Source: Candidatus Thorarchaeota archaeon
Lineage (GTDB): Archaea; Asgardarchaeota; Thorarchaeia; Thorarchaeales; Thorarchaeaceae
Direction of reading: 5' to 3'
Length of the DNA: 64,000 nt
Assembly: GCA_030612365.1 (NCBI GenBank)
Contig: JAUWOA010000002.1
Coordinates: 425 to 64,424 of the forward strand
The notes under the pieces were generated by a model that did no database searches, had not been told where the DNA came from, and saw only the letters and a list, made by a program, of their open reading frames with translations. The position numbers and the translations under genes are program-made. Shown in pieces: positions 3,617 through 63,538 of this stretch (its first letter is position 1; each line of letters starts with the position of its first letter).

Positions 3617-4205
3617 TTCTGCTAGTAGTCAGCTGAGGTATGTCGTGCCTGGAGCTGTTGGCGCAGCTTGGTCACTCAGGATGGCCCTTGACCAGTCATA
3701 TCAGGTTGTTCTTGAGTCGACAATAGGGCTGTTCCTCCTGTTGGTCGCCTTTGTGATATACATGAAGGGATGTGAAAAGAACCTTCTACTCTGGAACAAC
3801 GATACTGCGGTTCTCGCCACTGTAAAACCTCTCACAGTGGAAGTGTGCGCAGCCCGACTCATGACCAGTGTCCCGCTTGGGATTGACCTAAGCTATTCCG
3901 CGGGTAGAGTCCTTGAAACCATGACAATCAGGTTCAATGAGGAAAAGAATGCAGAACTGCGGTTCTTTGTCTGTCGACCTTTGGGACGTGGGGTTACACG
4001 CGTAGGCATGATGGTGGTTCGTCAAGCACCAAACATGCGTAGGTTGGCGTCTGTTGTTAAGAAACTGTCAGAGAAGGTGCTGGAGGATGTAATGGTCTTG
4101 GAGAGTGCTCTGCGCGCAGCCTATGCCCATATGCCCATTGCACGAGCGGAGCTAGATGATATCGCTCTCATAAACTCTGGAGGTGTGGATTTCGTTGTCA
4201 ACTGA
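3606..4205 (+). CDS. hypothetical single-pass membrane protein
   Basis: 199-aa ORF overlapping the XPD stop. One hydrophobic helix (IGLFLLLVAFVIYM). No catalytic motif. Confidence 0.5.
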   Translation: MAFNSASSQLRYVVPGAVGAAWSLRMALDQSYQVVLESTIGLFLLLVAFVIYMKGCEKNLLLWNNDTAVLATVKPLTVEVCAARLMTSVPLGIDLSYSAGRVLETMTIRFNEEKNAELRFFVCRPLGRGVTRVGMMVVRQAPNMRRLASVVKKLSEKVLEDVMVLESALRAAYAHMPIARAELDDIALINSGGVDFVVN

Positions 4206-4482
4206 GGTGCAAGCCCAGATCACAATCCCCACATCGCTACGCCCTCAGGCTGTCATGGACTCTTTGTCAATTGGCCATGGTTACAGTTGGATTGTTCTTG
4301 TTCCTACGCCAATGAGGATAGCTCATGGAAGCACATCGTGCGGGGACATGCCCGAGCTACTGATTGTAGGCAAGACCCTCCTGACGAGCGGGGGAAATGA
4401 AGTTTACATTGGCCGCCTGAGGAGGATGCTTGAGGTGTTGTCGGGCACTGTTGTGAAAGTGCGGAGGGATAGCGATGTCTAA
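4183..4482 (+). CDS. hypothetical small protein
   Basis: Fills the gap between the flanking genes and overlaps both. Alternative ATG at 4255. No motif recognised. Confidence 0.35.
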   Translation: MWISLSTEVQAQITIPTSLRPQAVMDSLSIGHGYSWIVLVPTPMRIAHGSTSCGDMPELLIVGKTLLTSGGNEVYIGRLRRMLEVLSGTVVKVRRDSDV

Positions 4483-18234: not shown

Positions 18235-21200
18235 ATGAAACGCAGGAATAGACTGACCCTACTTGTTGTATTTGGACTTATGTTGCTATGTTCAACGCCA
18301 CTCCTCGCAACCTTGCACTCATCGCTTGAGCCGCCGGGAGGACAGATAGCGACTCGACTTGAGAATTCATTCACGCGGTCAGCAGACTCCAGTGTACTTG
18401 TACAGCTGGGCTCCTACGTAATAGTGAATCTTCCTAGTGCAACCATTCCAGATAGGGGCATGGAGATTGAGAGCCTGCTGGCATCCTTCGGGGTTCATAC
18501 TCAGTTGACTACAGTCAGCGACACACTCAGCAACCCTGAAGTGATTGAGAGTGCTCATGTCGTCGTCCTTGATGCCAGTCTTGGGTCTGAAAACGGGAGT
18601 TTTGTGCCGTCGGAGTTCATTGCACTTCTTCTAAGGCACGATAGACCCGTTGTTCTAATCGGGCGCGCGGCCTGGTTATTGCACAGACTTAGAGGGCTAG
18701 GTTCACCCTCGCAGACCGCTTCCATCAACGCCCTTTTGCAGACATCTGAGGGTCACGATGGAGCGGTCTTTCTTTCCTTGCCTGAGAGCCTAACACTGGG
18801 CGCCAGTCTCACATCTGAAACTGGGGTGTTGCTTCCAAATGACCGGGTGCAGACTGAGCGTTCAAGGCTAGAGGACCTGACCGGCAAAGGTGTGTCTGGT
18901 CAGCTTGCCCCCCTGAGACATGACGCGTGGCCTCTTGATGCATTCCTCTTCGGACCCGAGGACCCATCCCTTCTGACTACTAACGGCAGGGGACTCCTGC
19001 TGAACACCATTGCCTATGCAACAGCGATAGGCGAATCACCCACATCGCAGATGCTGATTGACTCACAGATTCCTAAAAGTGAGTTGCTTGCAGGAGGTTT
19101 CCATTACCAGCATGAGTCGATGGTTGAGTTCACGTACTATGCAGTACACTCCATGAGATCGGTGCTCGACGCAACCGCATGGACACAGTGGAGGACTGAC
19201 CATCAATCGAAAGTGCAGAGCATCCTGTCCAGTCTGTACGTTGAAACCGGTTCAGACGCTTGTTTCATGGACTCTGCGTCAGGAAGCAAGGTGAATCTTA
19301 AGACAACTGCTTGGGGGCTCTGGCTAGTTGAGGTCATGGGCCTCTCATCCCAGTTCACAGTGTCAAAGCTTGTAGCCAATCTGAGTGCCGGGCAGGATGT
19401 GTCCGGTGGCTTTAGCGATGACATGACAGCAACATTCCATATCACCGAAGCATTATTCGAGACAGGTGAGCTGTCAGCAATCAACACAGGTACTCTTGAG
19501 TCTTGGCTCAGGGACTGCGTTGTAACGGGATCGGATGCTCCCTCGAACCCAGAATACTGGGGAGGGGTATCAAAGAATCCGTCGAACATCATTCCAAAGA
19601 ACTCCTACTCGGTACAGTACGTACTGGCTCTTGAAATGCTTGAGGAATCACATCACGATCCCAGCAAACTGACAGAATGGATACATGAGGATACATCCAA
19701 CGGTGATGGCTCGTTCAATGATGTTGTGGGGCAGAGCTTTGAAACCGTCACAGGAACGTCCTCCGCACTCACCACACTCTCAGTTCTGGGAACACTCAGT
19801 AGCTCTAACAGAACTGCTGGGCTTGCATGGCTATCATTCAACCAGTTGGACTCTGGCGGGTTTGGAATGCGCGACAAGGCTTTGGATGTCGTTGCTAAGT
19901 CGCGAGAAACCGAGAGAGTCGCGCTGTGTCTGAAAGAGCTGGGAGAAACCACTGGTGACATTATCGGTGGTGTATCAGATTATTTCGCACTTGTGGAAAC
20001 CAACATGGGGTTCGAAACCATGGAGCCCCTCCCGACCCTAATGTGGAGCTACTGGGTCACCGATATCGCAAGGCTTACGCATGGCACGATTGACCATGAG
20101 CAAGCAGTTGACTACTTGGAGTCCTTCGGTGAGTGGAGAATGTATCCCTTCTGGAGCAATATGACCACCTATGCGGGGGCAGAGTACAAATCTACACAGT
20201 ACAGGACCAAGAGTGTTTGGTCACAGTTCTTCGGAGTAGGGCTTGCTGCGTCTTTGAGTGTGCAGCTCCCAGCAGGTATGGTGTCTGGAACATCCAACTA
20301 CATCAGTCAAGCACAGGACTCATCAGGCCACTACAGGAACGCTCCATTGAGCGGAAGTCCGCATATACAGTACAGTGTGGCTGCTGTCGAAGCGCTGTAT
20401 CTCATTGATGAACTTGACACAATCACATACAGGACTCAGCTAGAGTCCGCACTGCTATCGGAATACTCCTCCGGCCAATGGTCCACAGACGGATGGACCC
20501 TGATGCCCTTTGCAAGCCAACAATCTGCGATAGACTTGTTGTGTACGAGGGCAGCATTCCGACTTGGTCTGATAGATCCCACAATGGCGTCAGAGATTGC
20601 TAGTAGCATAGAGGCGAGGATTCAGTACGCTGATCTGGGGGCACTGAGCCAAGACGTAGCTACTCTTTCTCTTCTCAACTCCTCGTTCTCTATTAGTGTA
20701 AGTTCCATCGACCGCGACAATGTACTTGGTGCCCTCGGGTCTTCATCCTTCCCTGATGGTTGGTTCAACTCCACTGACCTATGGCAGCCTGCTCTTACAG
20801 CAGGGGTCTTGAAGATGATATCTGCTCTGGGACTGAGGACCCTTCTCTATGATACATCAGGAGGCTCGATATCAGCTACTGTCCAGTCAGTACCGGATGT
20901 AGGACAGATTCTGAGCCTCGATGTTGTTATCATCTCATCTCTCACTACGCACACAGTCTATGTGCAAGCCTTTGACGAGTGGGTGCGTTTTGATAACGTT
21001 GCCAACACGGACACTCTGGAAGTTCCGATCCCGAATGACGAGTCAGCCCTTGGCCCTGCAAACGTGTCAGTAATGCTGTGGGACTGGGGCGCATCCCGCG
21101 CCTTTGACGGCATCACAACGCAGGTGAGTGGTACACTTCAGGGAACTCTAGACCTTGAAACCCCAACAGTGTTTCTGAATGAGTGTGTCAATGGTACAGT

Positions 21201-24200
21201 GACATGGTCACTCACCAGCGGTGCAGACGCAGGGCTCACTGAAATTGTAATTAGACTTGGCGACCCGCCAACATATCAGGAGTGGACCTACAACGATGTG
21301 AGTCCATTCCACTTCTCTGTGCCTACAACGAGCTTCGACACAGGGACGTACAATCTCACAGTCACCCTGAACATAGAGTACTGTGATGCCCTCGTCCTCC
21401 GTGACGAGGTAGAAATTGCATCCCCTGATCTAACCTACATGCTGGCGCCAGCAGCACTCTCTGGCGATGTGGGACAAGTGATGGTCATTGATTGGTCCTT
21501 GCACTTCTTGGAGAACGATAGCCTGGTTCCAGGTCAGCTCGTGTCACTGGAGGTCAGGGATGACAACGAGTTCATCGTCCACACAGACACCAGTATCTCA
21601 ACAACAAGCCCTGGTCAGTTCCACTGGACACCATCAACGAGGGGCATCTTTGCATTCAAGGTGTTGTTTGAGCGCAATGGCACTCTTCAGTCCTCTGAGG
21701 CCTTAGGATCGGCAGACGTATTTGAGAGCATGGTCCTTGAGTGGATTGACGCAGGGACATTTGACCAACACACCACGGTATCCGTTTCTGTGCAGTTGAG
21801 GACAGGAACAGGAACGCCTCTTCCAGGACAGTCGGTCCATATCACCATAACAGCACCCTCATCCACAGTCTTGCTGGATGCCACGTTTATCACCAACAGT
21901 ACCGGTCATGTACAGGTCACATTCACATTGAACGAGAACGGAGCCTATTCCCTCGAAGCCTCGTTCGCAGGGCAAGGGTTCCTGAAGGCTTCCCAGACGA
22001 CAAACGGTCTCATATCATGGTCCGATAGCGTACTCACACTAGGTGGAGTGCCTCCTGAAGGACTGACTGAGGAGTCATGGACCTTTTGGGCTCTTCTTGA
22101 GGACGCTGCACTACTTCCCCTTGAGGGAGAGTCTGTCATAATGAGGGTCGTTCTGTTACCCTCGACAGTAGTATTTGAGCAGACTCTGCTCACCAACGCA
22201 ACAGGTTATGTGTCAGTCATGTGGTCAACCAGTACGGCAGGCTCCTACCTAGTTGAGGCTGAGTACGAAGGCACCATTTCAAGACAGGCACAATTCGATT
22301 CATCTCCCCTCCATGTGCGGATCTCCGTTAGTCTAGGAATTGAGATCTCATCGGACCCAGAAGTGAGCATGCCCGGCTGGGTCCGGATCTACGCCGAGGA
22401 GAACTGGGGTTCGCCAATAGTCGGACTGATCGTGACGCTGGTAATTAGAAACCCCGCTGATGTCGTGATCTTTGAACAGACAGCCATTACAGGTGGCTCT
22501 GGTTACGCCAACTTCTCATGGACCCCATCAGTGAGAGGGGTGAACATGATAACTACCACATCTGACAGACAGGCATGGTATGAGGCGTCTGAGGCGAACA
22601 CTACCGCGGGAGTGATGGAACAGCCCACAATCACCATAGACATTGACGAGCTCCTTGCGCCCGCCAACAGCTTTCTGACAGTATCTGTTATCGACTCATC
22701 ACTGGCAGGAGTATCAGGGGTCACTGTACGTACCATTGTAACGCTGAACGATGCCACGATACTTGACATGATGAATGTGACTGTCGGTGATGGTACGATT
22801 ATTCTGAACTTACAGCTGACAGAGCCAGGAAACCTCGGTATTGCGGTGAGCATGTCTGAGCAGGGTTGGCTTTTAGCTCAGACCAACAGCACTACTCACG
22901 CAATCCACGGTCTCACACAGATATCCGTGAGCGCACATCCGCAGCCAATAGATCAAGGAACAACATATCCGGTCAAGGCTACACTAATTGGCTGGGACGG
23001 ACAGCCCATGGTCGGTGCCCTTGTCACGATATCCGTGAGTTGGACCAATGGAATACTTGTGGACTCTGCAACTCTTTCAACCGGGATTGACGGAACTTGC
23101 ACTCTAGGTCACATCTTCAATTTGGTGGGCGACTTCATTCTCAACGCGACTTATGTTGGAACCGGACTCAACTGCACGGCCATAGACACCAATGTACAGA
23201 GGGTTCACGTTACACCGTCCCTCACGCTCACTCATGATCCCACAAGCCTTCTGGGCGATGATGTTCAGTTCCTTTGCGGGGTCTATGATTCGTTTGGTCA
23301 GTACGTGACAGGCCGGACTCTCATTCTGTCCATTATGATGAACAGTGCAATTGTCTTTGAAACCCAATTTATCTCTGGCAGCGAGATATCAATGGTGCTC
23401 TGGACACCGGCGGAGCGGGGCCTTGCGACTATCACTCTTATTCACACGGGAGATGCATTCTATCTAGATAACTCAACGGTTTCTACAATGTCCGTTCTGG
23501 AACATGTAAGCGGTACACTTGAAATAGACCCAGCACCGATTGACGTTTTTCAAACAACCACACTCACCTACACACTGGAATCCACAACCGGCCTTTTGGG
23601 GGTTGAGATAGTCTTTGAGATTCTCGGCATAGATCTTGTGCCGGTGTGGACCGAGTCCGCATTCACCAACATCTCGGGAGTCGTGGAGGTTCAGTACATT
23701 GCCAATGACATGCACGGCATCCTGATGGCTCAGGCTGGACCGTCAGAGGACCAGTTCCTCGTGGGCGGGGATGTACAGGAACAGCTGGTCGTAATTGCAC
23801 AGTGTTATGCTACCACGGAATTGGCTCCTCCTCCCGCCTCCGTTGGGAGTGCGGTGAATATCACAATCAACGCAGTGGATGACCTTAGCGAGGCTATAGA
23901 TGGTCTCTCGGTGCAGGTCACGCTCTTCGACCCCTATGGCCAATATGTCAAGTTGGGACTGTGGTCGAACCACATCACAGTTACTTTAGAGGATGGTGTT
24001 GCCTATGCGGAGTTTACACCTGAATACTCGGGACTGTACACAGTCTACCTTGACTCATCAGGTTCCGTGTCAGTGCACTCCTTCCACCACGAGAGCTTTC
24101 ACACTGTCCACACCGCGACCTTCCTAGACTTCGTGGATACCCCCTCGGAGATGGAAGTTGGCGAGTCCTTTGACGTTTCTGTGCTATTCTCTGACTACGC

Positions 24201-26061
24201 AGGCCAACCGCTTGTTGGCATGGATGTGACGCTGCTACTGGAGGGTCCGGGAGGGGTGACAATCGGTCCCGTGAACATCACAACAGATGAGAATGGACTT
24301 GTCTTTTGGAGCACTGTGCTTGACGACGCAGGTCCTTGGCAGCTCACAGCGCAGTTCGATGGTCTTGGAGTGTATCTTGCAGCTCAGGCAGTCCATGACA
24401 TTGATGTGCGAGTGGCCACAGTGGTAGAGGTGGTCTTGCTTGACACTGGCATTATAATCGCAGGAGTGACGCCTGTATGTACAACTGTCTTCTTGACGGA
24501 CTCTCAGGGGACTCCTCTAGAGGGACAGACAATAGGCTACGAAGTCTACCACGAAGCCTATGGTCTGGTGGAGTTGGGCAGCTTCATACAGTTCGGTCAC
24601 GATCCTGAGCCGTTCAACATCACCTTGGTCCGAGGGGGAAATCATACCCTTGTGTTCGTATTCGATGGAACGGAGACCTATCATCCCTCAACCGCAGCAG
24701 TGAATGTGTGGGTGCTTGGTACTAGCAGAATCTCTGTCACAGGGCCGACCAGTGTAGACAGGTCCAATGACTCGGAGCTAGTCATAGCTGTACTGGATGA
24801 AATGGACAATATGTTAGTCCTTGCTGACCTTGGTGTATCGATTACTATGAACGGTCCTGATGGCGCAGTCAACCTAACCGCGTTGGCTGACTGGCATGAG
24901 TTCGAGGTACACATTCCTCTGTGGGCACTTCCCGTGGGAGTTTACATGTTGGACATCACAGTGCTGGAGTCCACCATACGACTGGGGGATGCCTTTCTCC
25001 ACATGCTCAACATGACGGCAGAAACCACGCTAGGGACAGAGGCAGAAGACCTTAACGGTTTTGTTGGCCATTCACACTCTATCACTCTAATTCTGGCAGA
25101 TACACTGGGGGACGGCGTTGATGCCGTGGATGTCTGGGTCAGCCTCTTCGCTCCTGACGGCAGGGAGGTCTATGGGAGCCCGTTGACCTCACAGACGAAG
25201 ATTGGTAGTGTTGATGGACTGATTGAGGTTTCGTGGAATCCGTCAATGACCGGCAACTACACTCTGGAGGTCTGGTTCGAGGGTGACGATTTCAGGGGGG
25301 CCTCATGGTTCACGGTGATTGTGCTAACGCGCCACGCCACGGTGCTAGAGGTGAATTTGCCTGAGGAGGTTACCTTCCCCGCAGAACCGCAGCTCATTCT
25401 GAGCCTCAAGTCTGGGTTTGCCAAGCTAGCGGATGCTGATGTTCACCTATCTATTATGCTTGGGAATGAAACAATCTGGACGACTGTTCTGGAAACTGAT
25501 TTTAGCGGGAGGGCGTTGATAGACATCGAAAGCCTTCTTGCGGGCGAGTACATGGCACTTCTGTTCTATTTGGGGTCTGAGGTCTATGCACCCATCAATG
25601 CCTCCGCAGAGCTCAGGATACTGCCCTGTGTAGCCGTTGCAATTATCACTGTAACAGACGCCTACATCGGTTTCAATTGTTCTGTTGTACTGGGGGTTGC
25701 AGTGCAGGGTGTACCGGAGAACTGGCAGGGGACAATGCAAATCACAGTGTCCGATCCTGATGGCTCTATCATAGCGGTCACAGAAACGATTACATCCGGT
25801 TCCGAATTGAGTCTGCTCTTTGTGCCTAGATTGGAGGGCGCACATGAACTGAACATCACGATTGGCGATCTTCCTGTTATAACGAACTTCACTGATGGCT
25901 TCAGTTTCTCTGTGGTCGATGCTCCACTTGCACTGAAGTTGGATTTTGGTTTAGCGCCTCTTCTTGGTGGAAGTGGGGCTATTGCTGTCATTGGCTATCT
26001 TATCCGCAAGAAGCTAGGTGCCATGATCGACAGTCTGCCAACAGAGTGGGAGTCAACATGA
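18235..26061 (+). CDS. giant (2608 aa) secreted, C-terminally membrane-anchored surface protein: prenyltransferase-like alpha/alpha repeats + ~17 Ig-like beta-sandwich modules
   Basis: Signal peptide MKRRNRLTLLVVFGLMLLCSTPLLA. Repeated Q/D-x-SGGF-type motifs (QDVSGGFSDD, NGDGSFNDV, QLDSGGFGMR, QDSSGHYRN, SSGQWSTDGW) at aa ~290-830. Then ~100-aa repeats of the form P(L/V)xGxxV...TNxTG.a.v.w.p...G.Y. Dozens of N-x-S/T sequons. Terminal TM LAPLLGGSGAIAVIGYLI followed by RKK. Confidence 0.85.
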   Translation: MKRRNRLTLLVVFGLMLLCSTPLLATLHSSLEPPGGQIATRLENSFTRSADSSVLVQLGSYVIVNLPSATIPDRGMEIESLLASFGVHTQLTTVSDTLSNPEVIESAHVVVLDASLGSENGSFVPSEFIALLLRHDRPVVLIGRAAWLLHRLRGLGSPSQTASINALLQTSEGHDGAVFLSLPESLTLGASLTSETGVLLPNDRVQTERSRLEDLTGKGVSGQLAPLRHDAWPLDAFLFGPEDPSLLTTNGRGLLLNTIAYATAIGESPTSQMLIDSQIPKSELLAGGFHYQHESMVEFTYYAVHSMRSVLDATAWTQWRTDHQSKVQSILSSLYVETGSDACFMDSASGSKVNLKTTAWGLWLVEVMGLSSQFTVSKLVANLSAGQDVSGGFSDDMTATFHITEALFETGELSAINTGTLESWLRDCVVTGSDAPSNPEYWGGVSKNPSNIIPKNSYSVQYVLALEMLEESHHDPSKLTEWIHEDTSNGDGSFNDVVGQSFETVTGTSSALTTLSVLGTLSSSNRTAGLAWLSFNQLDSGGFGMRDKALDVVAKSRETERVALCLKELGETTGDIIGGVSDYFALVETNMGFETMEPLPTLMWSYWVTDIARLTHGTIDHEQAVDYLESFGEWRMYPFWSNMTTYAGAEYKSTQYRTKSVWSQFFGVGLAASLSVQLPAGMVSGTSNYISQAQDSSGHYRNAPLSGSPHIQYSVAAVEALYLIDELDTITYRTQLESALLSEYSSGQWSTDGWTLMPFASQQSAIDLLCTRAAFRLGLIDPTMASEIASSIEARIQYADLGALSQDVATLSLLNSSFSISVSSIDRDNVLGALGSSSFPDGWFNSTDLWQPALTAGVLKMISALGLRTLLYDTSGGSISATVQSVPDVGQILSLDVVIISSLTTHTVYVQAFDEWVRFDNVANTDTLEVPIPNDESALGPANVSVMLWDWGASRAFDGITTQVSGTLQGTLDLETPTVFLNECVNGTVTWSLTSGADAGLTEIVIRLGDPPTYQEWTYNDVSPFHFSVPTTSFDTGTYNLTVTLNIEYCDALVLRDEVEIASPDLTYMLAPAALSGDVGQVMVIDWSLHFLENDSLVPGQLVSLEVRDDNEFIVHTDTSISTTSPGQFHWTPSTRGIFAFKVLFERNGTLQSSEALGSADVFESMVLEWIDAGTFDQHTTVSVSVQLRTGTGTPLPGQSVHITITAPSSTVLLDATFITNSTGHVQVTFTLNENGAYSLEASFAGQGFLKASQTTNGLISWSDSVLTLGGVPPEGLTEESWTFWALLEDAALLPLEGESVIMRVVLLPSTVVFEQTLLTNATGYVSVMWSTSTAGSYLVEAEYEGTISRQAQFDSSPLHVRISVSLGIEISSDPEVSMPGWVRIYAEENWGSPIVGLIVTLVIRNPADVVIFEQTAITGGSGYANFSWTPSVRGVNMITTTSDRQAWYEASEANTTAGVMEQPTITIDIDELLAPANSFLTVSVIDSSLAGVSGVTVRTIVTLNDATILDMMNVTVGDGTIILNLQLTEPGNLGIAVSMSEQGWLLAQTNSTTHAIHGLTQISVSAHPQPIDQGTTYPVKATLIGWDGQPMVGALVTISVSWTNGILVDSATLSTGIDGTCTLGHIFNLVGDFILNATYVGTGLNCTAIDTNVQRVHVTPSLTLTHDPTSLLGDDVQFLCGVYDSFGQYVTGRTLILSIMMNSAIVFETQFISGSEISMVLWTPAERGLATITLIHTGDAFYLDNSTVSTMSVLEHVSGTLEIDPAPIDVFQTTTLTYTLESTTGLLGVEIVFEILGIDLVPVWTESAFTNISGVVEVQYIANDMHGILMAQAGPSEDQFLVGGDVQEQLVVIAQCYATTELAPPPASVGSAVNITINAVDDLSEAIDGLSVQVTLFDPYGQYVKLGLWSNHITVTLEDGVAYAEFTPEYSGLYTVYLDSSGSVSVHSFHHESFHTVHTATFLDFVDTPSEMEVGESFDVSVLFSDYAGQPLVGMDVTLLLEGPGGVTIGPVNITTDENGLVFWSTVLDDAGPWQLTAQFDGLGVYLAAQAVHDIDVRVATVVEVVLLDTGIIIAGVTPVCTTVFLTDSQGTPLEGQTIGYEVYHEAYGLVELGSFIQFGHDPEPFNITLVRGGNHTLVFVFDGTETYHPSTAAVNVWVLGTSRISVTGPTSVDRSNDSELVIAVLDEMDNMLVLADLGVSITMNGPDGAVNLTALADWHEFEVHIPLWALPVGVYMLDITVLESTIRLGDAFLHMLNMTAETTLGTEAEDLNGFVGHSHSITLILADTLGDGVDAVDVWVSLFAPDGREVYGSPLTSQTKIGSVDGLIEVSWNPSMTGNYTLEVWFEGDDFRGASWFTVIVLTRHATVLEVNLPEEVTFPAEPQLILSLKSGFAKLADADVHLSIMLGNETIWTTVLETDFSGRALIDIESLLAGEYMALLFYLGSEVYAPINASAELRILPCVAVAIITVTDAYIGFNCSVVLGVAVQGVPENWQGTMQITVSDPDGSIIAVTETITSGSELSLLFVPRLEGAHELNITIGDLPVITNFTDGFSFSVVDAPLALKLDFGLAPLLGGSGAIAVIGYLIRKKLGAMIDSLPTEWEST
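20815..25915 (+). repeat. array of ~17 divergent Ig-like (Big/MG-like) coding repeats inside the giant gene
   Basis: Recurring units, for example PLPGQSVHITITAP...TNSTGHVQVTFTLNENGAYSLEASFAG; PLEGESVIMRVVLL...TNATGYVSVMWSTSTAGSYLVEAEYEG; PIVGLIVTLVIRNP...TGGSGYANFSWTPSVRGVNMI; PLVGMDVTLLLEGP...TDENGLVFWSTVLDDAGPWQLTAQFDG. Boundaries are approximate. Confidence 0.65.
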
Positions 26062-31374: not shown

Positions 31375-33972
31375 CTATGGTACAAACGTAATCATCCTCT
31401 CTACAAAATGTTCACTAAGATCAGCAATGGCGAGCGATGTGAGAGTCGGATAGAAGCGCATCAGATGATATCCGTACTGTTCTGTTTCCTCGTCGTAGGC
31501 ATACCAGATGTCGTAGATGTCATCCCAATGCTGACTAAACATGTTGCCACTCTGGCCGCCGGTGTATACACCGTACGCATGCTCGATGTCACCCATGTCT
31601 ATGACCATCCGCCATGAAGGTCCCGCGACAACTCTCCACTGGCCTGCGTCGTTGTCCCAATAACTTACTGCCCGATTGAGAGTGTTCCAGCCGCGGTGGG
31701 GGTCTCCACCTATCACAGTGAGGCTCGCTAGATGATCAAAGTAGGTGACGTGGAAATTGCCGTAATACCAATCCGTCATATTGCTTCCAAGCTTTAGGAC
31801 CATCTCATCCAGAGCGCGAAATAGTGCTTGTGCGAGAATCTCATCACGGGTCTCCACTTCGCCAGTGGAGTGGTCATCCAAGTAGTTGGCCTCATTCTCC
31901 TTGATTACTCTCTCCAGCACGGGGGTGGATGGCGTCCGCAGATTAGCGTCAAGTGTTACGCGCAGCTCGTCGAATATCTCGTACTTCAAGGCGTCGACAA
32001 GGAATCTCCATGTCGTGGGAGCTTGAATGTCTGTTTCCATTGAGAAGTCCCAATCTGACAACCAATCAACCGCAAGCTGAACAGTGGCATTACCGTCCCC
32101 GGCCGCGTTCCACGCATCGATAACGTAGGGCACAATCTCTTGAGCTGAAACATCCACAGAATCAGCTTGCCACTTCTTCATGTCATCCATTGAAATGCTA
32201 GAGCTAGTGTTCAGTAGGTAGTTGATCCGACGTCCTCTGTACCCTGTGGCGTATGGTCCAATCACATCCCACCCGTAGGTTTCGGGATCGTAACTTCTCT
32301 GGTTTGCAGACTGCAGGTATCCCTGTGCTGGGTCAACTGACCTTGGTATGTAGGCGTAAGGGATGTTAGAGACCATTCCCACAGAGTCATTCAGTGCTTG
32401 AATTGGGATGTCTCCTATGTAACCAGTTCTTAATGGATAGCGACCTGCTGCTGTTATTGCGATGTGTCCTTCATCATCAGCATAGATGAAGTTGTGTGGG
32501 GGTGAATCCCACCAGTACAGGGCGTCGTAGTAATCCTCTAGGTTCTTAGCTTTGTTGAGAAGCAAGAGGGCTAGTATCTCGTGAGTGATATCTAATCCAG
32601 TCCAGTTCATCGCAATGTTGGGTGTTTCAGTGCTGTCAAGGTTGTATGTTCCCATCACCGAATCAATGCAGGGTCCATGTACCGACCATTTTACGTCAAA
32701 GATGATGTCCCCCACATCTTTCGTGTGAATCGTTTCATCGACAACCTCGAATTCACGCCATGCACCATTGTACCAGTACTGGGACTCGTTGTCGGGGTTC
32801 ACTTGCTCAACGAAGAAGTCCATAACGTCATAGGCAGCCGCTGTCATGCCCCACGCAATGTGGTCGCCATGGCCAAGCACGAATCCTGGAATGCCCGGAA
32901 ATGAAACGCCCATGACATCTGTTCCAGGGGCCACAAGGTGTGCTTCATACCAGAGGGAGGGTGCTTGGAGTGGGAGATGAGGATCATTGGCAAGGATTGG
33001 AGAACCCGTTTCTGAGAGAGAACTGCTCACAGCCCAACTGTTGCTGCCCATTGCTTCTCTTAGTTCGATGGGTAAAATGACATCATCAATGATACTCAGC
33101 AAAGTCTTTAGCTTGTCAGTCGGTATCAAATCCTCGGAGGGACTTGCACGGCTTGCAGTAGGCGGAGGTGCTGGATCGGCTGGGAAGCCTCCGGCGGAGT
33201 TAGGATACTCGGTCAGACTGAGATTGTGCTGCTCCGGCATTATCGGCACGTTGTAGGGCATTAAATCAGGAAAGAGGTCATCGTACATCGTATTGTTAGC
33301 GATGGTGGCTCTGGCGTATTCTCTATAGAGGTCGTCAGCCCCTGCCACAAGACTCCAGCTCATCATCTTGGTCCAGATGAACACGTCCACGGGTCTCCAG
33401 TACTGCGGTGTGAATCCCAGAATCTTAAACTCAATTGGGGTTGTGGAGCTCGTCATTGAATCAATAAACGCGTTTACTCCTGCTACTTCCGCGTCTATGA
33501 TATCGAGGACATAGGCAACATCATCATTCGTGTCTCTATTTGCAAGATACCATTGGTATGTTTCTTCAGCACCTCTTGCAAGGCCGATTGCACGGTAGTA
33601 TCTGTCTGAGCTGACTGCGTAGGATCCTACGATCTCGCAGATTCTACCTGCAGCCAAGTAGTTCTGCATCACCATCTGGAAGAGTCGTTCCTTTGCGTGA
33701 AGATATCCAAGCGCCATGTAAGCATCCGTCACTGCATCAGCGTAGATGTGTGGGATACCCCACTCGTCAAAGCGGACTTCCACGTTGGCATCAAGACCTG
33801 GAAGATTGATTGTTTGCAAGGCGGACTCTGGATATCCAACATCGAAGACTCCTCCAGTTGGGGCAATTATTCCAAGGCCGCCCGAAAGCGGACCAATCGG
33901 CATTGTCAGCATAACAATCAGTGCAATGGGCCCAACCAAGGAGATGCCCAGATTCAGAATCTTTCTCTTCAT
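31375..33972 (-). CDS. penicillin acylase family (peptidase S45) Ntn hydrolase, secreted or anchored
   Basis: N-terminal signal/anchor KILNLGISLVGPIALIVMLTM. IPHIYA, HAKERLFQM, and the autoprocessing site GSNSWAVSS (Ser nucleophile of the beta chain). 865 aa. Confidence 0.85.
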   Translation of the reverse strand: MKRKILNLGISLVGPIALIVMLTMPIGPLSGGLGIIAPTGGVFDVGYPESALQTINLPGLDANVEVRFDEWGIPHIYADAVTDAYMALGYLHAKERLFQMVMQNYLAAGRICEIVGSYAVSSDRYYRAIGLARGAEETYQWYLANRDTNDDVAYVLDIIDAEVAGVNAFIDSMTSSTTPIEFKILGFTPQYWRPVDVFIWTKMMSWSLVAGADDLYREYARATIANNTMYDDLFPDLMPYNVPIMPEQHNLSLTEYPNSAGGFPADPAPPPTASRASPSEDLIPTDKLKTLLSIIDDVILPIELREAMGSNSWAVSSSLSETGSPILANDPHLPLQAPSLWYEAHLVAPGTDVMGVSFPGIPGFVLGHGDHIAWGMTAAAYDVMDFFVEQVNPDNESQYWYNGAWREFEVVDETIHTKDVGDIIFDVKWSVHGPCIDSVMGTYNLDSTETPNIAMNWTGLDITHEILALLLLNKAKNLEDYYDALYWWDSPPHNFIYADDEGHIAITAAGRYPLRTGYIGDIPIQALNDSVGMVSNIPYAYIPRSVDPAQGYLQSANQRSYDPETYGWDVIGPYATGYRGRRINYLLNTSSSISMDDMKKWQADSVDVSAQEIVPYVIDAWNAAGDGNATVQLAVDWLSDWDFSMETDIQAPTTWRFLVDALKYEIFDELRVTLDANLRTPSTPVLERVIKENEANYLDDHSTGEVETRDEILAQALFRALDEMVLKLGSNMTDWYYGNFHVTYFDHLASLTVIGGDPHRGWNTLNRAVSYWDNDAGQWRVVAGPSWRMVIDMGDIEHAYGVYTGGQSGNMFSQHWDDIYDIWYAYDEETEQYGYHLMRFYPTLTSLAIADLSEHFVERMITFVP

Positions 33973-58836: not shown

Positions 58837-59133
58837 CTACTTGCTTGGTGCGCCCTTCCAATCAAGAATATGCGCCATCCAACCCGCAGTTCGTGCCATG
58901 GCAAACAGTGAGGTGTTGAGTTCTGCGGGTATACCCAGAGTTGCGTAAACAGCAGCATTGTAGAGGTCCACGTTTGGATGCAGTGTCAACCCCTTTCAGT
59001 TCGACCCGGTCCAATCAAGCTGATAAGGCTAGCTATCCTTGGTCACTCACGAATGGCTTCAGGGTATGCAACAGCTGCCAAGAATTCGTGCAATCCTGGA
59101 TATTTTGTAGGTGGTCATAACATGGTGCACAGG
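58837..59133 (-). pseudogene. decayed citrate synthase family gene fragment
   Basis: Minus-strand frame reads ...PVHHVMTTYKISRIARIL..(five in-frame stops)..KGLTLHPNVDLYNAAVYATLGIPAELNTSLFAMARTAGWMAHILDW. The last ~50 codons match the citrate synthase C-terminal signature PN(V/T)D(F/Y)Y...LG(I/F)P...LFA..R..GW.AH. The upstream part resembles GFGHRVYK..DPRA but is broken. Weaker remnants may extend to ~59400. Confidence 0.55.
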
Positions 59134-59405: not shown

Positions 59406-60440
59406 GTGGTGCGACCCGGTCCAGGCTGTGCTGTTTGGGAGATCACACTGAGGTGCAATCTAAATTGCATGCATTGCGGCTCCGCAGCTGGAAAAGCACG
59501 AAGCGATGAGCTTACCACAGATGAGGCGCTTCAATTATGTGATGACCTGAAGGGCATCGGCTGTCAGGGCGTTGCGATGATGGGTGGCGAGCCACTACTT
59601 AGGAAGGATTGGCCAGTTATCGCAGAACGAGTGCGCAACGTAGGCATGGATTTGTCGATCATCACTAACGGATACAAAATCGCTGAGAGCAAATTCCAAC
59701 AAATCCTTGATATCAACCCTGAATTGGTTACAGTAAGCATTGATGGCGGGCACGCCGCTGTTCATGATAAGATTCGTGGAGTTCCGGGCTCCTTCAAGGA
59801 GGTAGTAGCAACTCTTCGTCGATTCGTGGAATCTGGTTTGCCAACTGGTGTCATCACCACTGTCCACAAGATGAACCTCAGCGAGCTTCCCACTATCCGA
59901 AAACTCTTGCTGGGCACAGGCGTAGCGTGGCAGATACAGATGGCCACCCCCTACGGACGGCTCACATATGATCATGTTCTCTCAAAGGAAGAGTATTATT
60001 CGCTAGCCCTATTCATTGCTGCCACCCGGAAGAGATACTCCAAGAAGGAGATCATGATTGCAGGTGCACACGACATGGGTTACTTCTCACGGGTTCTCCC
60101 CCCCTTGCAAGTGTATCCATGGCAAGGCTGTCAAGCTGGCATCTCAACACTTGGGATTGAGAGCAATGGAAACATCCTTGGTTGTCTTGCATTACCTCCA
60201 AAGTTCGTGGAGGGCAACATTCGCGAGCGGCCTTTGAAAGAGATCTGGAACGATGACGCTTTTTCCTCGTACACTCGCAAAGTTCGGCGGACCGACTTGG
60301 GCAGCAAGTGCGCGAGCTGTACATACAGTAAGATATGCAAGGGTGGCTGTTCTGCCGTCTCTCATTCGATGGCAGGCGGACTTCATCGGGATCCATATTG
60401 CCTTCGTTTGATTGAGGGGGAACTCAAGAAAAGCGACTGA
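59406..60440 (+). CDS. radical SAM enzyme with C-terminal SPASM/twitch domain
   Basis: CNLNCMHC (C-x3-C-x2-C) at aa 17-24, GGEPLL, ITNGY, then GCQAG...ESNGNILGC and CASCTYSKICKGGCSA auxiliary-cluster cysteines. GTG start; GGAGG at 59390..59394. Confidence 0.85.
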   Translation: MVRPGPGCAVWEITLRCNLNCMHCGSAAGKARSDELTTDEALQLCDDLKGIGCQGVAMMGGEPLLRKDWPVIAERVRNVGMDLSIITNGYKIAESKFQQILDINPELVTVSIDGGHAAVHDKIRGVPGSFKEVVATLRRFVESGLPTGVITTVHKMNLSELPTIRKLLLGTGVAWQIQMATPYGRLTYDHVLSKEEYYSLALFIAATRKRYSKKEIMIAGAHDMGYFSRVLPPLQVYPWQGCQAGISTLGIESNGNILGCLALPPKFVEGNIRERPLKEIWNDDAFSSYTRKVRRTDLGSKCASCTYSKICKGGCSAVSHSMAGGLHRDPYCLRLIEGELKKSD

Positions 60441-60484: not shown

Positions 60485-60850
60485 ATGTCATTGGTTGACA
60501 TGATTCCAGTTGGGATTGAGCTACTCCGACTTAGTGGTCGAGAGAGAGTGTACGCTATTCTATCACGGCTGTTTAAAGCTAAGCCGATATCTCCAGCATA
60601 TAGAAGAAGAATCAGGCCACTCGGCGCTAGCGTGGGATTGTCAGAGGCTGAGGTTGACGAGGTTATCAGCGGGAGTCCTAATGTTACGAGCCTTCCATTT
60701 TGGTTGAAGTGGGTTCTTGTTGTTTTCATCATCATTGTGTTGATTCTTGGTGCCATCGGGGTGACCGGGTCGTATGTGCCCTGGTTTACGAATCCGCTCT
60801 ACGTTCCCGGTACCGACTATGCAAGTATCAAGCCTAAGGATTTCTTGTAG
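60485..60850 (+). CDS. tandem family member 1: HTH-like N-domain + single TM + conserved C-terminal tail
   Basis: 121 aa. N-domain LGASVGLSEAEVDEV, TM WVLVVFIIIVLILGAIGV, tail LYVPGTDYASIKPKDFL-stop. Starts 44 nt after the rSAM stop. Confidence 0.6.
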   Translation: MSLVDMIPVGIELLRLSGRERVYAILSRLFKAKPISPAYRRRIRPLGASVGLSEAEVDEVISGSPNVTSLPFWLKWVLVVFIIIVLILGAIGVTGSYVPWFTNPLYVPGTDYASIKPKDFL

Positions 60851-60972
60851 GAATGGCCTATTGAGTTCGTAGCGTATGTCTGAAGATCAAGTGGCATTGC
60901 ACTATTCAACCAATTCCCTCATCCCTTGCGCGTTGCGCAAATATCTTATGCGAGTTAGCCTAATGTTCGTAT

Positions 60973-61305
60973 ATGCTTCTAAATAACCCCTCCTCCGTCG
61001 GACTTGACATCCTCCGCACCCGGGGCGGAGCTCGTCTATACCAATTGGTTCTTCGAATTGCGGGGGTTCCAACAATCAGGGCAATGCCCTCGAAGGAACT
61101 AGTACGTCTTGGAGCCAAGGTCGGGCTTGAAGCGTCGGAGGTTGAACAGGTTGCAGAGAACAGACCTGATGCAAACGTATTCCCCAAATGGTTGCAGCTA
61201 ATTTTGGCAATCATTGTGATTGCTGGCTCGTACTATCTGTGGCGAAGAATGACCTACCTCCCCGGGACGTTGTATGGAGCCATAGGTCCACGGGACTTCT
61301 TATAG
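60973..61305 (+). CDS. tandem family member 2
   Basis: 110 aa, collinear with member 1 (VGLDILRTRGGARLY / VGIELLRLSGRERVY; LGAKVGLEASEVEQV). TM LQLILAIIVIAGSYYL, tail TYLPGTLYGAIGPRDFL-stop. Confidence 0.6.
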   Translation: MLLNNPSSVGLDILRTRGGARLYQLVLRIAGVPTIRAMPSKELVRLGAKVGLEASEVEQVAENRPDANVFPKWLQLILAIIVIAGSYYLWRRMTYLPGTLYGAIGPRDFL

Positions 61306-61398
61306 GACTGGTCCAAAGAGCTCATCTGTATAACTTGGAAACTGGCTTGCATTACGCTAATCAACAGCTTTTATGCTTCGGAACCCGACCATCTTCTC

Positions 61399-61758
61399 AT
61401 GACTTGGAGGGAATCCATTCTCTACGAACTGAACGCAGTTCGCTTTCGACGGCTTGGTGGGCTCAAGGACTGGGTGCGCGGTTTCTTGACAACATCAGTT
61501 CTTGACACGGAGAAAGCCGAGCTGCTAGGCGCTCAAGCTTGTCTGACACCCAACGAGGTTGGAGCCGCCATGGATGCTCGAATGAGCAGAAAAGGCAGTA
61601 TCCTGTTCAAATTAACGGTAGTAGTATTCACTCTCATAATTGTGGGTGCAGTTGTTCTGGCAGACCCACTAGGTGTTTTTGGTCAATACCCCGCCACCAA
61701 TACCACGTACGTGCCGGGTACGCGCTATGGCAGCATCAGCCCAAAGGACTTCCGGTAG
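61399..61758 (+). CDS. tandem family member 3
   Basis: 119 aa. LGAQACLTPNEVGAA, TM LTVVVFTLIIVGAVVLA, tail NTTYVPGTRYGSISPKDFR-stop. Confidence 0.6.
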   Translation: MTWRESILYELNAVRFRRLGGLKDWVRGFLTTSVLDTEKAELLGAQACLTPNEVGAAMDARMSRKGSILFKLTVVVFTLIIVGAVVLADPLGVFGQYPATNTTYVPGTRYGSISPKDFR

Positions 61759-61850
61759 GGATTCGCGCATTAGCATTCGTTGATTATTCAGGACCTGTTG
61801 CGCTACGCCAACCGATAATCTTAACGGCTTTGACCCCATACTATACAACT

Positions 61851-62219
61851 ATGAATTGGATGGAACTCTGTCTGTATCAACTGGATGTGGCTTCTATCCG
61901 GGGGAGCCGCCGCTTCCTTGGGCCTATGCAATGGCTTCGCAGTTTCTTGACAAAACCAGTCCTTGAGTCAGAGAAGATCGAGCAGCTCGGTGCTCAAGCA
62001 GGTCTCACACCCAATGAGGTCCAAGACGCAGTAAGCACGCCCGCAAGCAAGGGTGAGAGCATAGTGTTCAAACTGGTTGTGGTGATTGTGTTTCTTTTCA
62101 TCTTGATTTCAGCTATCATAACGAGCCCAATAGGCGCCTACATCAACCAGGAGCTCTTCAACACAACTTACCTGCCAGGGACACTCTATGGAAGCATCAG
62201 TCCGAAAGACTTCAGGTAA
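61851..62219 (+). CDS. tandem family member 4
   Basis: 122 aa from the in-frame ATG at 61851 (the ORF-track start at 61539 overlaps member 3). LGAQAGLTPNEVQDA, TM LVVVIVFLFILISAIIT, tail NTTYLPGTLYGSISPKDFR-stop. Confidence 0.6.
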   Translation: MNWMELCLYQLDVASIRGSRRFLGPMQWLRSFLTKPVLESEKIEQLGAQAGLTPNEVQDAVSTPASKGESIVFKLVVVIVFLFILISAIITSPIGAYINQELFNTTYLPGTLYGSISPKDFR

Positions 62220-62224
62220 ACACG

Positions 62225-63538
62225 ATGCGAATCCATGTGGGCTGTGGCCCAGTCTACAAGAAGGGCTACATCAACATTGACATACTTGATACTACCGTTG
62301 CCGATCGCATCATGTCTGCATATCATCTGGAATTTCCCGATGATTCAGCTAGTCTTGTGGAGTGCATGCATACTCTCGAACACCTCGGTGCAGCGAAGAG
62401 CATCTATGCATTGGCTGAATTCTTCCGCGTATTGAAACCGGGAGGCGTTCTACTTCTAGAAACCCCCGATATAGAAGCAGCCTTTGCGAACTTCCTCAAG
62501 AATGGGGAAGAACAAAGGAAGCTCCTAATGAACTGGATCTACGGCTTGGATTCGCCAGGGATGGGGCATCGCTACTGCTTCCCCCGGGAACTGCTTAGTC
62601 GCATGTTGAAGGAAACTGGCTTCAAAGATATTCAGTTGAAAAGATTCGCAACTAAATCCGCTCAGCCAACATTGCGAGTCAAATGCAGGAAGCCTGAATC
62701 GTATGTCGCCCATCAGATTATTTCACGCATACGGCGTTCCCTGGTAGATAATGGCCTGATTGATCTTGATGACCAAGTCAGTGCACTTGATCGCGAAACT
62801 CTCATCCAATCTCTTGCATCGCTGACACATCAATTGTGTGCTAAATGGGATGAACTGACGTTGAAGCAAATGACCATAGAATCAGCGGTGCAGAATCCGC
62901 GAATGGGGCTGGCTTTCATCGAGCAACTTGAGAGCCAGATTTCTGAGTCACCTTCTCGGGTGAAGAGGTATGGACGGATTCTCGAAACGCTGGGGTCTCT
63001 TGACTTCCCTGCAGTTCTATTGCATCTCTTCATGCAGGTTCCACTACAAGTCGGAATTCAGAATCAGACGTACCTTACTGTCCGGAACATGGGGGTTGCC
63101 ACCGTCAAGAAGCTTCTTGCAGGAACAGAAAAACAAGCAGTCTTGAAGGAGCTACGACGAACACGTGCGGTGCTGTCTGACGACAAAATCCTGAGCCACT
63201 TCTCTGAAGAAGGAGTGAAGCGCCTTGCAGAGCAGAGTTTCGCTCACGGTGCAAAATCTTTTGCTAATCATGAACTGACTGAGGCTGTTCGCTTGTTCGA
63301 AGAGGCGTTCAGTCTTAATCGCGATGATCTTCTCATTACATGGAACCTAGCGCGCTTGAAGGCGGTCGAAGGAAACGGAGATGCATCAAAGAAGTACTAT
63401 GATATGACTTCGTTACTTGCCCAACGCTACAAGCAACCCTTTCGTCGAAGGATGCTCGAGCGGCTTCGCTCTGAAATCCGCCTTGCATCCGAGGGCCAGG
63501 TGGATGGCCTGACAGCACCAGTCTATCAGGCCCTCTAG
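62225..63538 (+). CDS. class I SAM-dependent methyltransferase fused to a helical (TPR-like) C-terminal region
   Basis: Motif I HVGCGP, LEHLG, post-II LKPGGVLLLETPD. About 250 further aa are largely helical, ending in TPR-like repeats (AVRLFEEAFSLNRDDLLITWNLARLKAVEGNGDASKKYY). Starts 5 nt after member 4. Confidence 0.8.
   Translation: MRIHVGCGPVYKKGYINIDILDTTVADRIMSAYHLEFPDDSASLVECMHTLEHLGAAKSIYALAEFFRVLKPGGVLLLETPDIEAAFANFLKNGEEQRKLLMNWIYGLDSPGMGHRYCFPRELLSRMLKETGFKDIQLKRFATKSAQPTLRVKCRKPESYVAHQIISRIRRSLVDNGLIDLDDQVSALDRETLIQSLASLTHQLCAKWDELTLKQMTIESAVQNPRMGLAFIEQLESQISESPSRVKRYGRILETLGSLDFPAVLLHLFMQVPLQVGIQNQTYLTVRNMGVATVKKLLAGTEKQAVLKELRRTRAVLSDDKILSHFSEEGVKRLAEQSFAHGAKSFANHELTEAVRLFEEAFSLNRDDLLITWNLARLKAVEGNGDASKKYYDMTSLLAQRYKQPFRRRMLERLRSEIRLASEGQVDGLTAPVYQAL

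Follow-up and report, generated by a model that had tools for sequence, protein, structure and literature searches.

The 64,000-nucleotide stretch analyzed here (positions 425 to 64,424 of contig JAUWOA010000002.1, GenBank assembly GCA_030612365.1, from a Candidatus Thorarchaeota archaeon; "the window" denotes this whole stretch and not only its tandem-gene region) contains four tandem paralogous small genes, m1 to m4. They lie between the gene for a radical S-adenosylmethionine (SAM) enzyme with a SPASM domain and the gene for a SAM-dependent methyltransferase, and their products share a 15-residue motif close to the C terminus. Judged from sequence, the small proteins are probably the precursors of a conserved radical SAM/SPASM plus methyltransferase cassette, with a tail that would be modified by both enzymes. 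A preliminary description of the window had singled out the four tails as a possibly modified element under strong selection, and the two flanking enzymes had no part in its reasoning; a modified tail is now supported by these flanking genes and by a synteny that is kept wherever enough flanking sequence is available. Of the three readings put forward at that time (a ToxR-like membrane-tethered regulator, a precursor whose modified tail is cleaved off, and a new C-terminal sorting or anchoring signal), the precursor came closest with respect to the modified tail, whereas cleavage remains a proposal only. The features of the cassette are listed below (ORF, open reading frame; TM, transmembrane; types A and B are defined in the next section).

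59406-60440, forward strand: radical SAM/SPASM enzyme, 344 amino acids (Pfam Radical_SAM 3e-26 and SPASM 2.8e-10, above the gathering thresholds)
60485-60850, forward strand: m1, small protein of type A, 121 amino acids; putative leader element LGASVGLSEAEV at residues 46-57, TM helix at about residues 77-95, motif YVPGTDYASIKPKDF at residues 106-120
60800-60844, forward strand: 15-residue motif of m1
60973-61305, forward strand: m2, small protein of type A, 110 amino acids; TM helix at about residues 67-85, motif YLPGTLYGAIGPRDF at residues 95-109
61255-61299, forward strand: 15-residue motif of m2
61399-61758, forward strand: m3, small protein of type B, 119 amino acids; TM helix at about residues 68-86, motif YVPGTRYGSISPKDF at residues 104-118
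61708-61752, forward strand: 15-residue motif of m3
61851-62219, forward strand: m4, small protein of type B, 122 amino acids (119 amino acids from the ATG at 61860); TM helix at about residues 71-89, motif YLPGTLYGSISPKDF at residues 107-121
62169-62213, forward strand: 15-residue motif of m4
62225-63538, forward strand: class I SAM-dependent methyltransferase with a helical TPR-like C-terminal region, 437 amino acids

Conservation of the Tails in the Four Small Proteins

The tails were found in all four ORFs exactly as the preliminary description had quoted them, and their consensus reads Y-x-P-G-T-x-Y-[GA]-[SA]-I-x-P-[KR]-D-F-x-stop. When the four proteins were aligned, 9 of the 15 columns of the motif were invariant versus 9 of the 90 ungapped columns elsewhere (binomial P = 2.9e-6), and the pairwise identities among m1 to m4 were 60-87% in the tail versus 22-45% in the remainder. 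The tail DNA of the four paralogues differed chiefly at third codon positions, the proportions of synonymous and nonsynonymous differences being 0.72 (pS) and 0.18 (pN), respectively. When the small genes were compared with those of seven orthologous loci, the pN/pS values of m2 to m4 were 0.05-0.08 for the tails and 0.28-0.52 for the N-terminal domain plus TM helix; those of m1 were 0.32 for the tail and 0.37 for the remainder. Because of these ratios and of tail differences that are mostly synonymous, m1 to m4 are genuine protein-coding genes under purifying selection, with an extra constraint on the tail. The earlier claim of a divergent protein body joined to a strongly selected tail therefore held, and a non-coding DNA repeat devoid of protein-level conservation, which had been named as its alternative, is ruled out by the pN/pS values of the tails.

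In the mechanical ORF list m4 appeared in a longer form that starts at a TTG at 61539 and overlaps m3. An ATG start at 61851 or 61860 fits the database orthologues P0019 and P0016, and the beginning MNWMEL encoded from 61851 parallels the beginning MTWRES of m3. The radical SAM gene ends 44 nt before the start of m1, the spacers between the four small genes (60851-60972, 61306-61398 and 61759-61850) measure 92-122 nt, and the methyltransferase gene starts only 5 nt past the stop of m4. The small-gene paralogues may each own an archaeal promoter. A scan for sigma-70 promoters and terminators was uninformative, because its counts equaled the shuffled expectation and the scan is of bacterial type whereas the host is an archaeon.

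A crude neighbor-joining tree of the small proteins of nine loci upheld the pairing of m1 with m2 and of m3 with m4 in two duplication rounds, as the preliminary description had suggested, and indicated that the first round is ancient, the split between the two types predating the sampled lineages. Type A (m1 and m2) is characterized by a short linker between TM helix and motif, mostly Y-x-P-G-T-L-Y at the start of the motif, and a conserved N-terminal helix GLDxIRxxxGxxxY. Type B (m3 and m4) has a longer linker rich in Thr, Pro and Asn and mostly T-T-Y-x-P-G-T-R-Y. Most cassettes hold at least one type A and at least one type B protein, and such a pair may be functional, like a two-component product.

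Distribution of the Motif

Word-indexed searches with m3 and with a profile of the four paralogues retrieved 70 proteins, all of them from metagenomes or metagenome-assembled genomes (MAGs), the named ones belonging to Candidatus Thorarchaeota. When 1.84 billion cluster representatives (50% identity level) were searched with a HMMER profile, 80 matched at E <= 1e-3, 50 of them at E <= 1e-10. The motif, whose range the preliminary description had left to metagenome searches, is thus not confined to this locus. No relatives of the family were found in the viral contigs searched, and no model of it was present in Pfam or NCBIfam (June 2026). The motif could be anchored in 76 of the 80 representatives, where the residues were distributed as follows (counts out of 76; position 0 is the first Tyr).

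Position -1: T 58
Position 0: Y 76
Position 2: P 51
Position 3: G 75
Position 4: T 63, S 8
Position 5 (variable): R 31, L 23, D 6, others
Position 6: Y 76
Position 7: G 48, S 14, A 13
Position 8: S 36, T 30, A 8
Position 9: I 51, V 13, L 11
Position 11: P 58
Position 13: D 74
Position 14: F 69

In these 76 representatives F14 was never the last residue and was followed by 1-26 further residues. The motif, previously placed directly before the stop codon, is accordingly near-C-terminal and not terminal: the window proteins have a single residue after F14, and the position immediately before the stop holds in this lineage only. The N-T-T sequon that had been noted ahead of the motif in m3 and m4 did not prove to be a general feature, since Asn occurs at position -3 in just 18 of the 76 representatives, as opposed to 58 with Thr at position -1, and an N-x-T sequon is present in only about one-quarter of them; an N-glycosylation sequon was therefore rejected as a part of the motif. 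The linkers are often rich in Thr, Pro and Asn (e.g. TTTTTPTY and NTTY), a composition that fits an external, possibly glycosylated stalk.

Conservation of the Cassette

Eight loci were recovered by scanning GTDB genomes (seven from Candidatus Thorarchaeota and one from an "uncultured archaeon"), and a metagenome locus scan with a narrow alignment added ten more. In Candidatus Thorarchaeota and other Asgard MAGs the cassette had the order radical SAM enzyme, two to four small proteins, methyltransferase. A homologue of the window radical SAM enzyme (42-96% identity) adjoined the motif ORFs in every related locus with at least about 1 kb of flanking sequence, and where no such match was seen the contig ended within about 300 nt. 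The methyltransferase came directly next in all Thorarchaeota-type loci with sufficient downstream sequence, those lacking it being cut by the contig end. The linkage of the motif genes with the radical SAM and methyltransferase genes is strict.

In the close relatives L001-L004 the flanks were the same as in the window, where the outer neighbors of the cassette are an amidohydrolase and a glyceraldehyde-3-phosphate dehydrogenase. L005 and L006 had wholly different flanks and two small proteins, with a radical SAM enzyme 62% and a methyltransferase 45% identical to those of the window, and L007-L009 also encoded two small proteins next to a radical SAM enzyme of 67% identity. An AT-rich lineage (33% GC; L036 and L038; one member of the lineage is labeled Promethearchaeota archaeon) carried the full cassette with 45% identity in the radical SAM enzyme and 30% in the methyltransferase. 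Because the flanking genes differ among L005, L036 and the window, the cassette is the conserved unit. The motif of the AT-rich Promethearchaeota proteins (L036 5641-6300, P0128-P0142) reads N-T-Y-P-[SA]-G-T-x-Y-S-T-[IV]-[KR]-[IL]-K-D-F; it has lost P11, has Ser in place of G7, and is followed by a strongly basic extension of 5-25 residues.

Three distant homologues of the radical SAM enzyme that were looked up (63%, 51% and 52% identical by tblastn) each adjoined a small ORF with the layout leader-TM-...KDF. The loci found in this way were L020/L021, L022 and L024, one of which is labeled "Thermoplasmatales archaeon SG8-52-4". The Thermoplasmatales-type small protein is degenerate (...LQELGKTLGLNEVD, TM helix, ...GAYYAGVSFKDFQLLFGWFL). 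In L020/L021 (5704-8468) and L024 (5704-7038) a 79-residue protein with the layout leader-TM-...Y[AT][GA]VS[FI]KDF precedes the radical SAM gene rather than following it as in the window, and these loci have no class I methyltransferase. The neighbors in L020 are a B12-binding radical SAM enzyme and an uncharacterized 400-residue protein that, judged by eye, resembles an ATP-grasp enzyme.

The amidohydrolase and radical SAM genes of the window are separated by a 636-nt gap. On its reverse strand, at 58837-58989, lies a 50-residue ORF corresponding to a fragment of the C-terminal domain of citrate synthase (Pfam Citrate_synt, 1.9e-15, covering positions 306-346 of the 357 in the profile). Because the orthologous gap in L001 is far shorter (189 nt), this fragment looks like a gene remnant or an insertion.

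Multi-repeat Relatives without a Transmembrane Helix

Three family members (P0123, P0133 and P0143) have no hydrophobic segment or TM helix and consist of three to five head-to-tail 15-residue units, YKAGTxY[GA]T[IV]SPK[DE]L, behind a short N-terminal part containing GKxLGLxxxDI. The five-repeat precursor P0123 is encoded on an AT-rich archaeal contig (L010 623-9803, Joint Genome Institute (JGI) Ga0272442_10004558) together with three radical SAM/SPASM paralogues that share 45-49% identity with the window enzyme; the gene for one of the three lies directly downstream of P0123. The same locus encodes a B12-binding radical SAM enzyme, a flavodoxin, a CPBP (Rce1-like) protease, an S9/alpha-beta hydrolase, and an extra 51-residue ORF with a single motif that ends in ...ELYKAGTIYGTVSPEEIK. 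P0133 (L011) likewise follows a radical SAM homologue. In multi-core precursors of peptides made on ribosomes and modified post-translationally (RiPPs), core repeats such as TIGSVS and TVGG stand in tandem behind a leader (PMC10878394), and the TM-less repeat proteins beside radical SAM/SPASM genes show this typical architecture. These natural tandem-repeat variants provide the strongest argument that the 15-mer is the substrate of the enzyme and that the LGxxxGL element of the N-terminal part is a leader rather than a DNA-binding helix. The TM-less multi-repeat versions would be easy to express, and the L010 cluster is a good candidate for heterologous expression.

The Two Flanking Enzymes

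The radical SAM enzyme of the window carries the cluster motif CxxxCxxC (C17/C21/C24) and the full 7-Cys SPASM pattern (C242-x17-C260; C302xxC305x5C311x3C315; C332), and these Cys residues were invariant across 32 homologues; 1559 homologues were found at E <= 1e-30. No RiPP recognition element (RRE) or PqqD domain was detected in this protein, and because the radical SAM core begins at about residue 9 there is no N-terminal RRE. Its best NCBIfam match was TIGR04103, "nif11-class peptide radical SAM maturase 3" (224 bits, cut-off 725), followed by TIGR03913, "GDL motif peptide-associated radical SAM/SPASM maturase" (E 5e-63, 213 bits, cut-off 592), and then by heme-pathway radical SAM enzymes at 165 bits or less (AhbD, 164 bits). 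The AlphaFold2 (AF2) model of the enzyme had a predicted local distance difference test (pLDDT) value of 93, and the nearest folds in the PDB were PqqE, SkfB and SuiB (TM-score 0.76-0.77), BlsE, anSME (0.72-0.74) and ChlB (0.71); PqqE was the best PDB match by both sequence and fold, and GDGT-MAS, an archaeal lipid-modifying radical SAM enzyme, was also among the results. The model places the window enzyme among the peptide/protein maturases, and the fold leaves its chemistry unfixed.

Residues 220-226 (about nt 60063-60083), which immediately precede the first Cys of SPASM, contain a stretch G220-A-H222...G225-Y226 that was invariant in the 32 homologues and, judged from the sequence, could provide an unusual ligand to an auxiliary cluster. 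In G225-Y226-F227 the G-Y is invariant, and Phe or Tyr occupies the place where cyclopropyl synthases have the Trp of GYW. In the cyclopropyl synthases TvgB and TigE the GYW is strictly conserved, its Tyr is a ligand to the Aux I cluster, and an N-terminal RRE is present (PMC10878394). Cyclopropyl-synthase chemistry on the conserved Ile/Val of the motif was considered and is unlikely, given the GYF instead of GYW and the lack of an RRE.

In the methyltransferase (Pfam Methyltransf_23 1.2e-11, Methyltransf_11 1.2e-7, TPR_19 3e-3) the catalytic domain takes up about 160 N-terminal residues. The sole specific matches were weak and corresponded to phospholipid N-methyltransferases (NF045882, E 2.9e-4; PDB 8ys9, E 0.008).

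Such matches would fit an alternative in which the small proteins are membrane-anchoring or activating subunits of a radical SAM-methyltransferase complex that acts elsewhere, for example on a membrane lipid or a cofactor, with the tail as a contact site for a protein or a ligand. The lack of an RRE in the radical SAM enzyme, its resemblance to heme-pathway enzymes after the peptide maturases, the presence of GDGT-MAS in the fold-search list, and the fact that all cassette partners but the two enzymes are membrane proteins agree with such a role. We nevertheless consider it improbable: TM-less relatives with three to five copies of the motif would make no sense as anchors, two to four paralogues per cassette with a hyper-conserved Tyr-rich 15-mer resemble substrates, the nearest families and folds of the radical SAM enzyme are peptide maturases, and the methyltransferase matches lie far under the cut-offs.

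The N-terminal Part and the Transmembrane Helix

The sole conserved element of the N-terminal part across the family (80 representatives) is the LGxxxGL element, [L]-G-x-x-[VL]-G-L-x-x-x-E-[VI]. In the AT-rich and short members the TM helix is preceded by only about 30 residues. When the small proteins, including distant and TM-less members, were compared with Pfam and NCBIfam up to E 10, nothing meaningful was found, and a profile built from 40 family members retrieved chance matches only, and no DNA-binding protein, from the PDB. In the AF2 model of m3, residues 3-46 and 51-62 are helical, residues 65-88 form a TM helix and the tail is disordered; no compact domain is seen.

These results bear on the suggestion that the small proteins are membrane-tethered regulators of the ToxR/RodZ type, the tail being a sensor or tag and the enzymes either unrelated or tuning the sensor. 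The sequence LGAxVGLxxxEV does resemble helix 2-turn-helix 3 of a helix-turn-helix (HTH) of the XRE type, one AT-rich Promethearchaeota member was labeled "cytoskeletal protein RodZ" by the JGI pipeline, and an N-in topology would put the N-terminal domain in the cytoplasm. Against this, neither Pfam and NCBIfam nor the PDB profiles returned an HTH family or a DNA-binding protein, the AF2 model of m3 consists of long low-confidence helices that do not support an HTH fold, and the N-terminal stretch of the short members comprises only about 30 residues. Moreover, the same LGxxxGL element heads the soluble multi-repeat precursors, as a leader would, and the N-terminal domain evolves much faster than the tail. 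A regulatory role of this type, the first reading of the preliminary description, is therefore very unlikely.

A hydrophobic 19-residue stretch (mean Kyte-Doolittle value >= 2.0) was present in 77 of the 83 members and ended 0-31 residues before Y0. The Lys plus Arg counts in the 15-residue flanks averaged 2.4 on the N-terminal side and 0.5 on the C-terminal side, and were higher on the N-terminal side in 67 of the 77 members. According to the positive-inside rule, these counts suggest a cytoplasmic location for the N-terminal part and an external one for the tail. Topology prediction, one of the checks envisaged in the preliminary description, thus gave a single TM helix with N-in/C-out orientation in most members. 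Because the TM helix lies so near the C terminus, its insertion would have to be largely post-translational.

A motif that lies near the C terminus, contains P-G and adjoins a TM helix might also be a new sorting or anchoring signal recognized by a sortase-like or lipid-attaching enzyme encoded elsewhere, and archaea do use PGF-CTERM signals with an archaeosortase. In signals of the PGF-CTERM, PEP-CTERM and LPXTG types the motif is followed by a hydrophobic helix and a basic tail at the extreme C terminus. In the small proteins the order is the reverse of that of PGF-CTERM and PEP-CTERM, with the TM helix preceding the motif, no sortase gene was present in any cassette locus examined, the motif occurs in tandem repeats without a TM helix, and the radical SAM linkage is strict. 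The third reading of the preliminary description is thus also highly improbable.

A Proposed Pathway for Tail Modification

From the strict linkage and the architecture of the proteins we infer that the tail is the substrate of the radical SAM enzyme and the methyltransferase, and we infer likewise the role of the leader, the topology and the order of events. The precursor would consist of an N-terminal helical leader, one TM helix, a short linker and a 15-residue core, Y0-x-P-G-T-x-Y6-[GSA]-[ST]-[IVL]-x-P-x-D13-F14. The RRE-less radical SAM enzyme would use the N-terminal helix of the precursor itself as leader or activator, as in binary spliceases, which need no RRE and in which the leader helix acts as an activator (PMC11414181). 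Radical chemistry would then take place on the tail, centered on the invariant Tyr6 and possibly on Tyr0, and the methyltransferase would add at least one methyl group, its place being taken in other lineages by a B12-binding radical SAM enzyme. Both steps would occur in the cytoplasm, ahead of membrane insertion; the TM helix would subsequently insert N-in/C-out in the manner of a tail anchor, and the modified tail would be displayed outside, where it would be kept anchored or clipped off.

As for the chemistry, a C-C or C-O crosslink based on Tyr (cyclophane-like) is possible, since two invariant Tyr residues flank a P-G turn (Y-x-P-G-T-x-Y) and two aromatic-X-X triplets are present. A splicease-like excision of tyramine at x-Y-G, which the variable x5, the invariant Y6 and the small residue after it would suit, appears unlikely. 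Some other chemistry on the tail is a quite reasonable possibility. That the system represents a new class, in which a leader-recruited modification of a Tyr-rich 15-mer by an undescribed reaction yields a tail-anchored surface peptide exported by its TM helix without a dedicated transporter, is somewhat doubtful.

Several observations weigh against the proposed tail modification. The proposed substrate relation is drawn from gene linkage and architecture. The radical SAM enzyme scores far under the cut-off of every curated family and, because of this, no chemistry can be transferred to it. The residue after Tyr6 varies among Gly, Ala and Ser under one enzyme (Y-A in m1), which is awkward for a strict XYG splicease. 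The Thorarchaeota cassette holds no gene for a protease or an exporter. The AF2 model of m3 (40 aligned sequences, mean pLDDT 62) was little informative. The cytoplasm is where radical SAM enzymes and class I methyltransferases reside, and the predicted N-in/C-out topology sets the tail across the membrane from them; it is because the predicted side of the tail is opposite to the enzymes that modification before insertion has to be assumed. The extension rich in Lys and Arg after the motif in the AT-rich lineage would better suit a cytoplasmic tail. Finally, we know of no RiPP precedent for a TM helix between leader and core.

Comparison with Known Systems

The window combines what is expected of a radical SAM/SPASM maturase system, namely CxxxCxxC and a 7-Cys SPASM domain together with adjacent co-oriented small ORFs that contain a core and an N-terminal element. 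By analogy, the system would function like a radical SAM/SPASM RiPP pathway, the nearest toolkits being of the binary splicease/proteusin type. Its distinctive features are a TM helix that separates leader from core, the fixed partnership with a methyltransferase-TPR protein, the exporter- and protease-free cassette of Thorarchaeota, and an Asgard-centered distribution. Literature searches, which did not cover Scott et al. 2022 (Chem 8:2659), yielded no description of a radical SAM/small-protein/methyltransferase cassette.

Spliceotide systems (with spliceases such as PlpX, PcpX, RhaX and RcsX, acting at X-Y-G sites) resemble the window in having a radical SAM/SPASM enzyme of similar size, and the core shares with their sites an invariant Tyr preceded by a variable and followed by a small residue. 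Splicease clusters are often accompanied by methyltransferases or B12-binding radical SAM enzymes, as in proteusin-type clusters. TIGR04103 probably corresponds to the PlpX family. PlpX itself has been assigned to IPR026482 (PMC11002830). Binary spliceases work without a Y/RRE protein and have a conserved leader helix, as in the window system (PMC11414181). The window enzyme is not a member of TIGR04103, which is the nearest family only (224 versus 725 bits). The residue after Tyr is Gly in 63%, Ser in 18% and Ala in 17% of the representatives (Y-A in m1, Y-G in m2 to m4), no Nif11 or NHLP leader is detectable, a TM helix separates leader and core, the host is an archaeon, and conservation extends to ten further positions of the 15-mer, far beyond the need of an XYG site.

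In triceptides, enzymes that form three-residue cyclophanes (3-CyFEs, such as ChlB, HaaB and HtkB) join the aromatic residue of an aromatic-X2-X3 motif to the C-beta of its X3 (PMC11499958). The window shares with them a radical SAM/SPASM maturase, repeatable motifs, and Y-x-P and Y-[GSA]-[ST] sequences that fit aromatic-X-X, a likeness of little weight because any Tyr provides it. ChlB is a fold neighbor of the window enzyme (TM-score 0.71, 18-20% identity), with PqqE, SkfB and SuiB scoring higher. In contrast to triceptide systems, no cyclophane-synthase family was among the top 25 NCBIfam matches of the enzyme, the enzyme has no RRE, the motif far exceeds three residues in length and is more conserved, and the precursor is membrane-anchored. 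The GDL-motif maturases of TIGR03913, named for a short peptide motif that ends in an acidic and then a hydrophobic residue, matched the enzyme over nearly its full length; nevertheless, the score lay under the cut-off and the peptide families are not detectably related. No literature on the chemistry of TIGR03913 was found.

In the PQQ (PqqA/PqqE) and mycofactocin (MftA/MftC) systems the reactive residue is a Tyr near the C terminus of a small precursor, and the single-copy, chromosomal, vertically conserved and exporter-free cassette of the window looks more housekeeping-like than antibiotic-like. The window system differs from them in lacking a chaperone such as PqqD or MftB and any peptidase or oxidase gene downstream, in having two to four membrane-anchored precursor paralogues, and in radical SAM scores far under the family cut-offs. 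The small proteins also resemble tail-anchored proteins (GET/TRC40 clients), having a single TM helix near the C terminus, an N-terminal part that is predicted to lie in the cytoplasm, and a short tail that would be translocated; post-translational insertion, if that is the route, would allow cytoplasmic modification beforehand. Unlike in usual tail-anchored proteins, about 20-50 residues follow the TM helix, at or over the usual upper length. We know of no tail-anchored protein with a luminal or external tail modified by a radical SAM enzyme.

New enzyme chemistry is being drawn at a growing pace from peptides modified by radical SAM enzymes, and those studied are almost all bacterial, soluble and exported by dedicated transporters. 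Asgard archaea are the closest prokaryotic relatives of eukaryotes. The present family stands out as an Asgard-centered, vertically conserved and compact three-part cassette in which a membrane anchor separates the recognition helix from the core. If its tail is indeed modified and displayed at the surface, it would represent a new route to a modified cell-surface or signaling peptide and a rare handle on Asgard surface biology. A splicease-like reaction would extend the ribosomal formation of beta-amino acids to archaea and to Y-A and Y-S sites, a Tyr crosslink would define a new core motif, and either chemistry would offer biochemistry a well-defined 15-residue substrate.

Other Features of the Window

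No tRNA genes and no Rfam families were found in the window. On the forward strand, a run of genes with overlapping starts at 1613-10888 encodes two helicases, one XPD/Rad3-like (1613-3616) and one of the DEAD-box type (6823-9081), and two proteins of 783 (4475-6826) and 606 residues (9068-10888) without a Pfam match, and may be a repair or defense operon. The 2608-residue ORF at 18235-26061 on the same strand, with matches to Big_1, MG2, MG4 and the prenyltransferase toroid, corresponds to an alpha-2-macroglobulin-like giant protein in an Asgard genome. A penicillin amidase family protein of 865 residues (Pfam 6.9e-185) is encoded on the reverse strand at 31375-33972.

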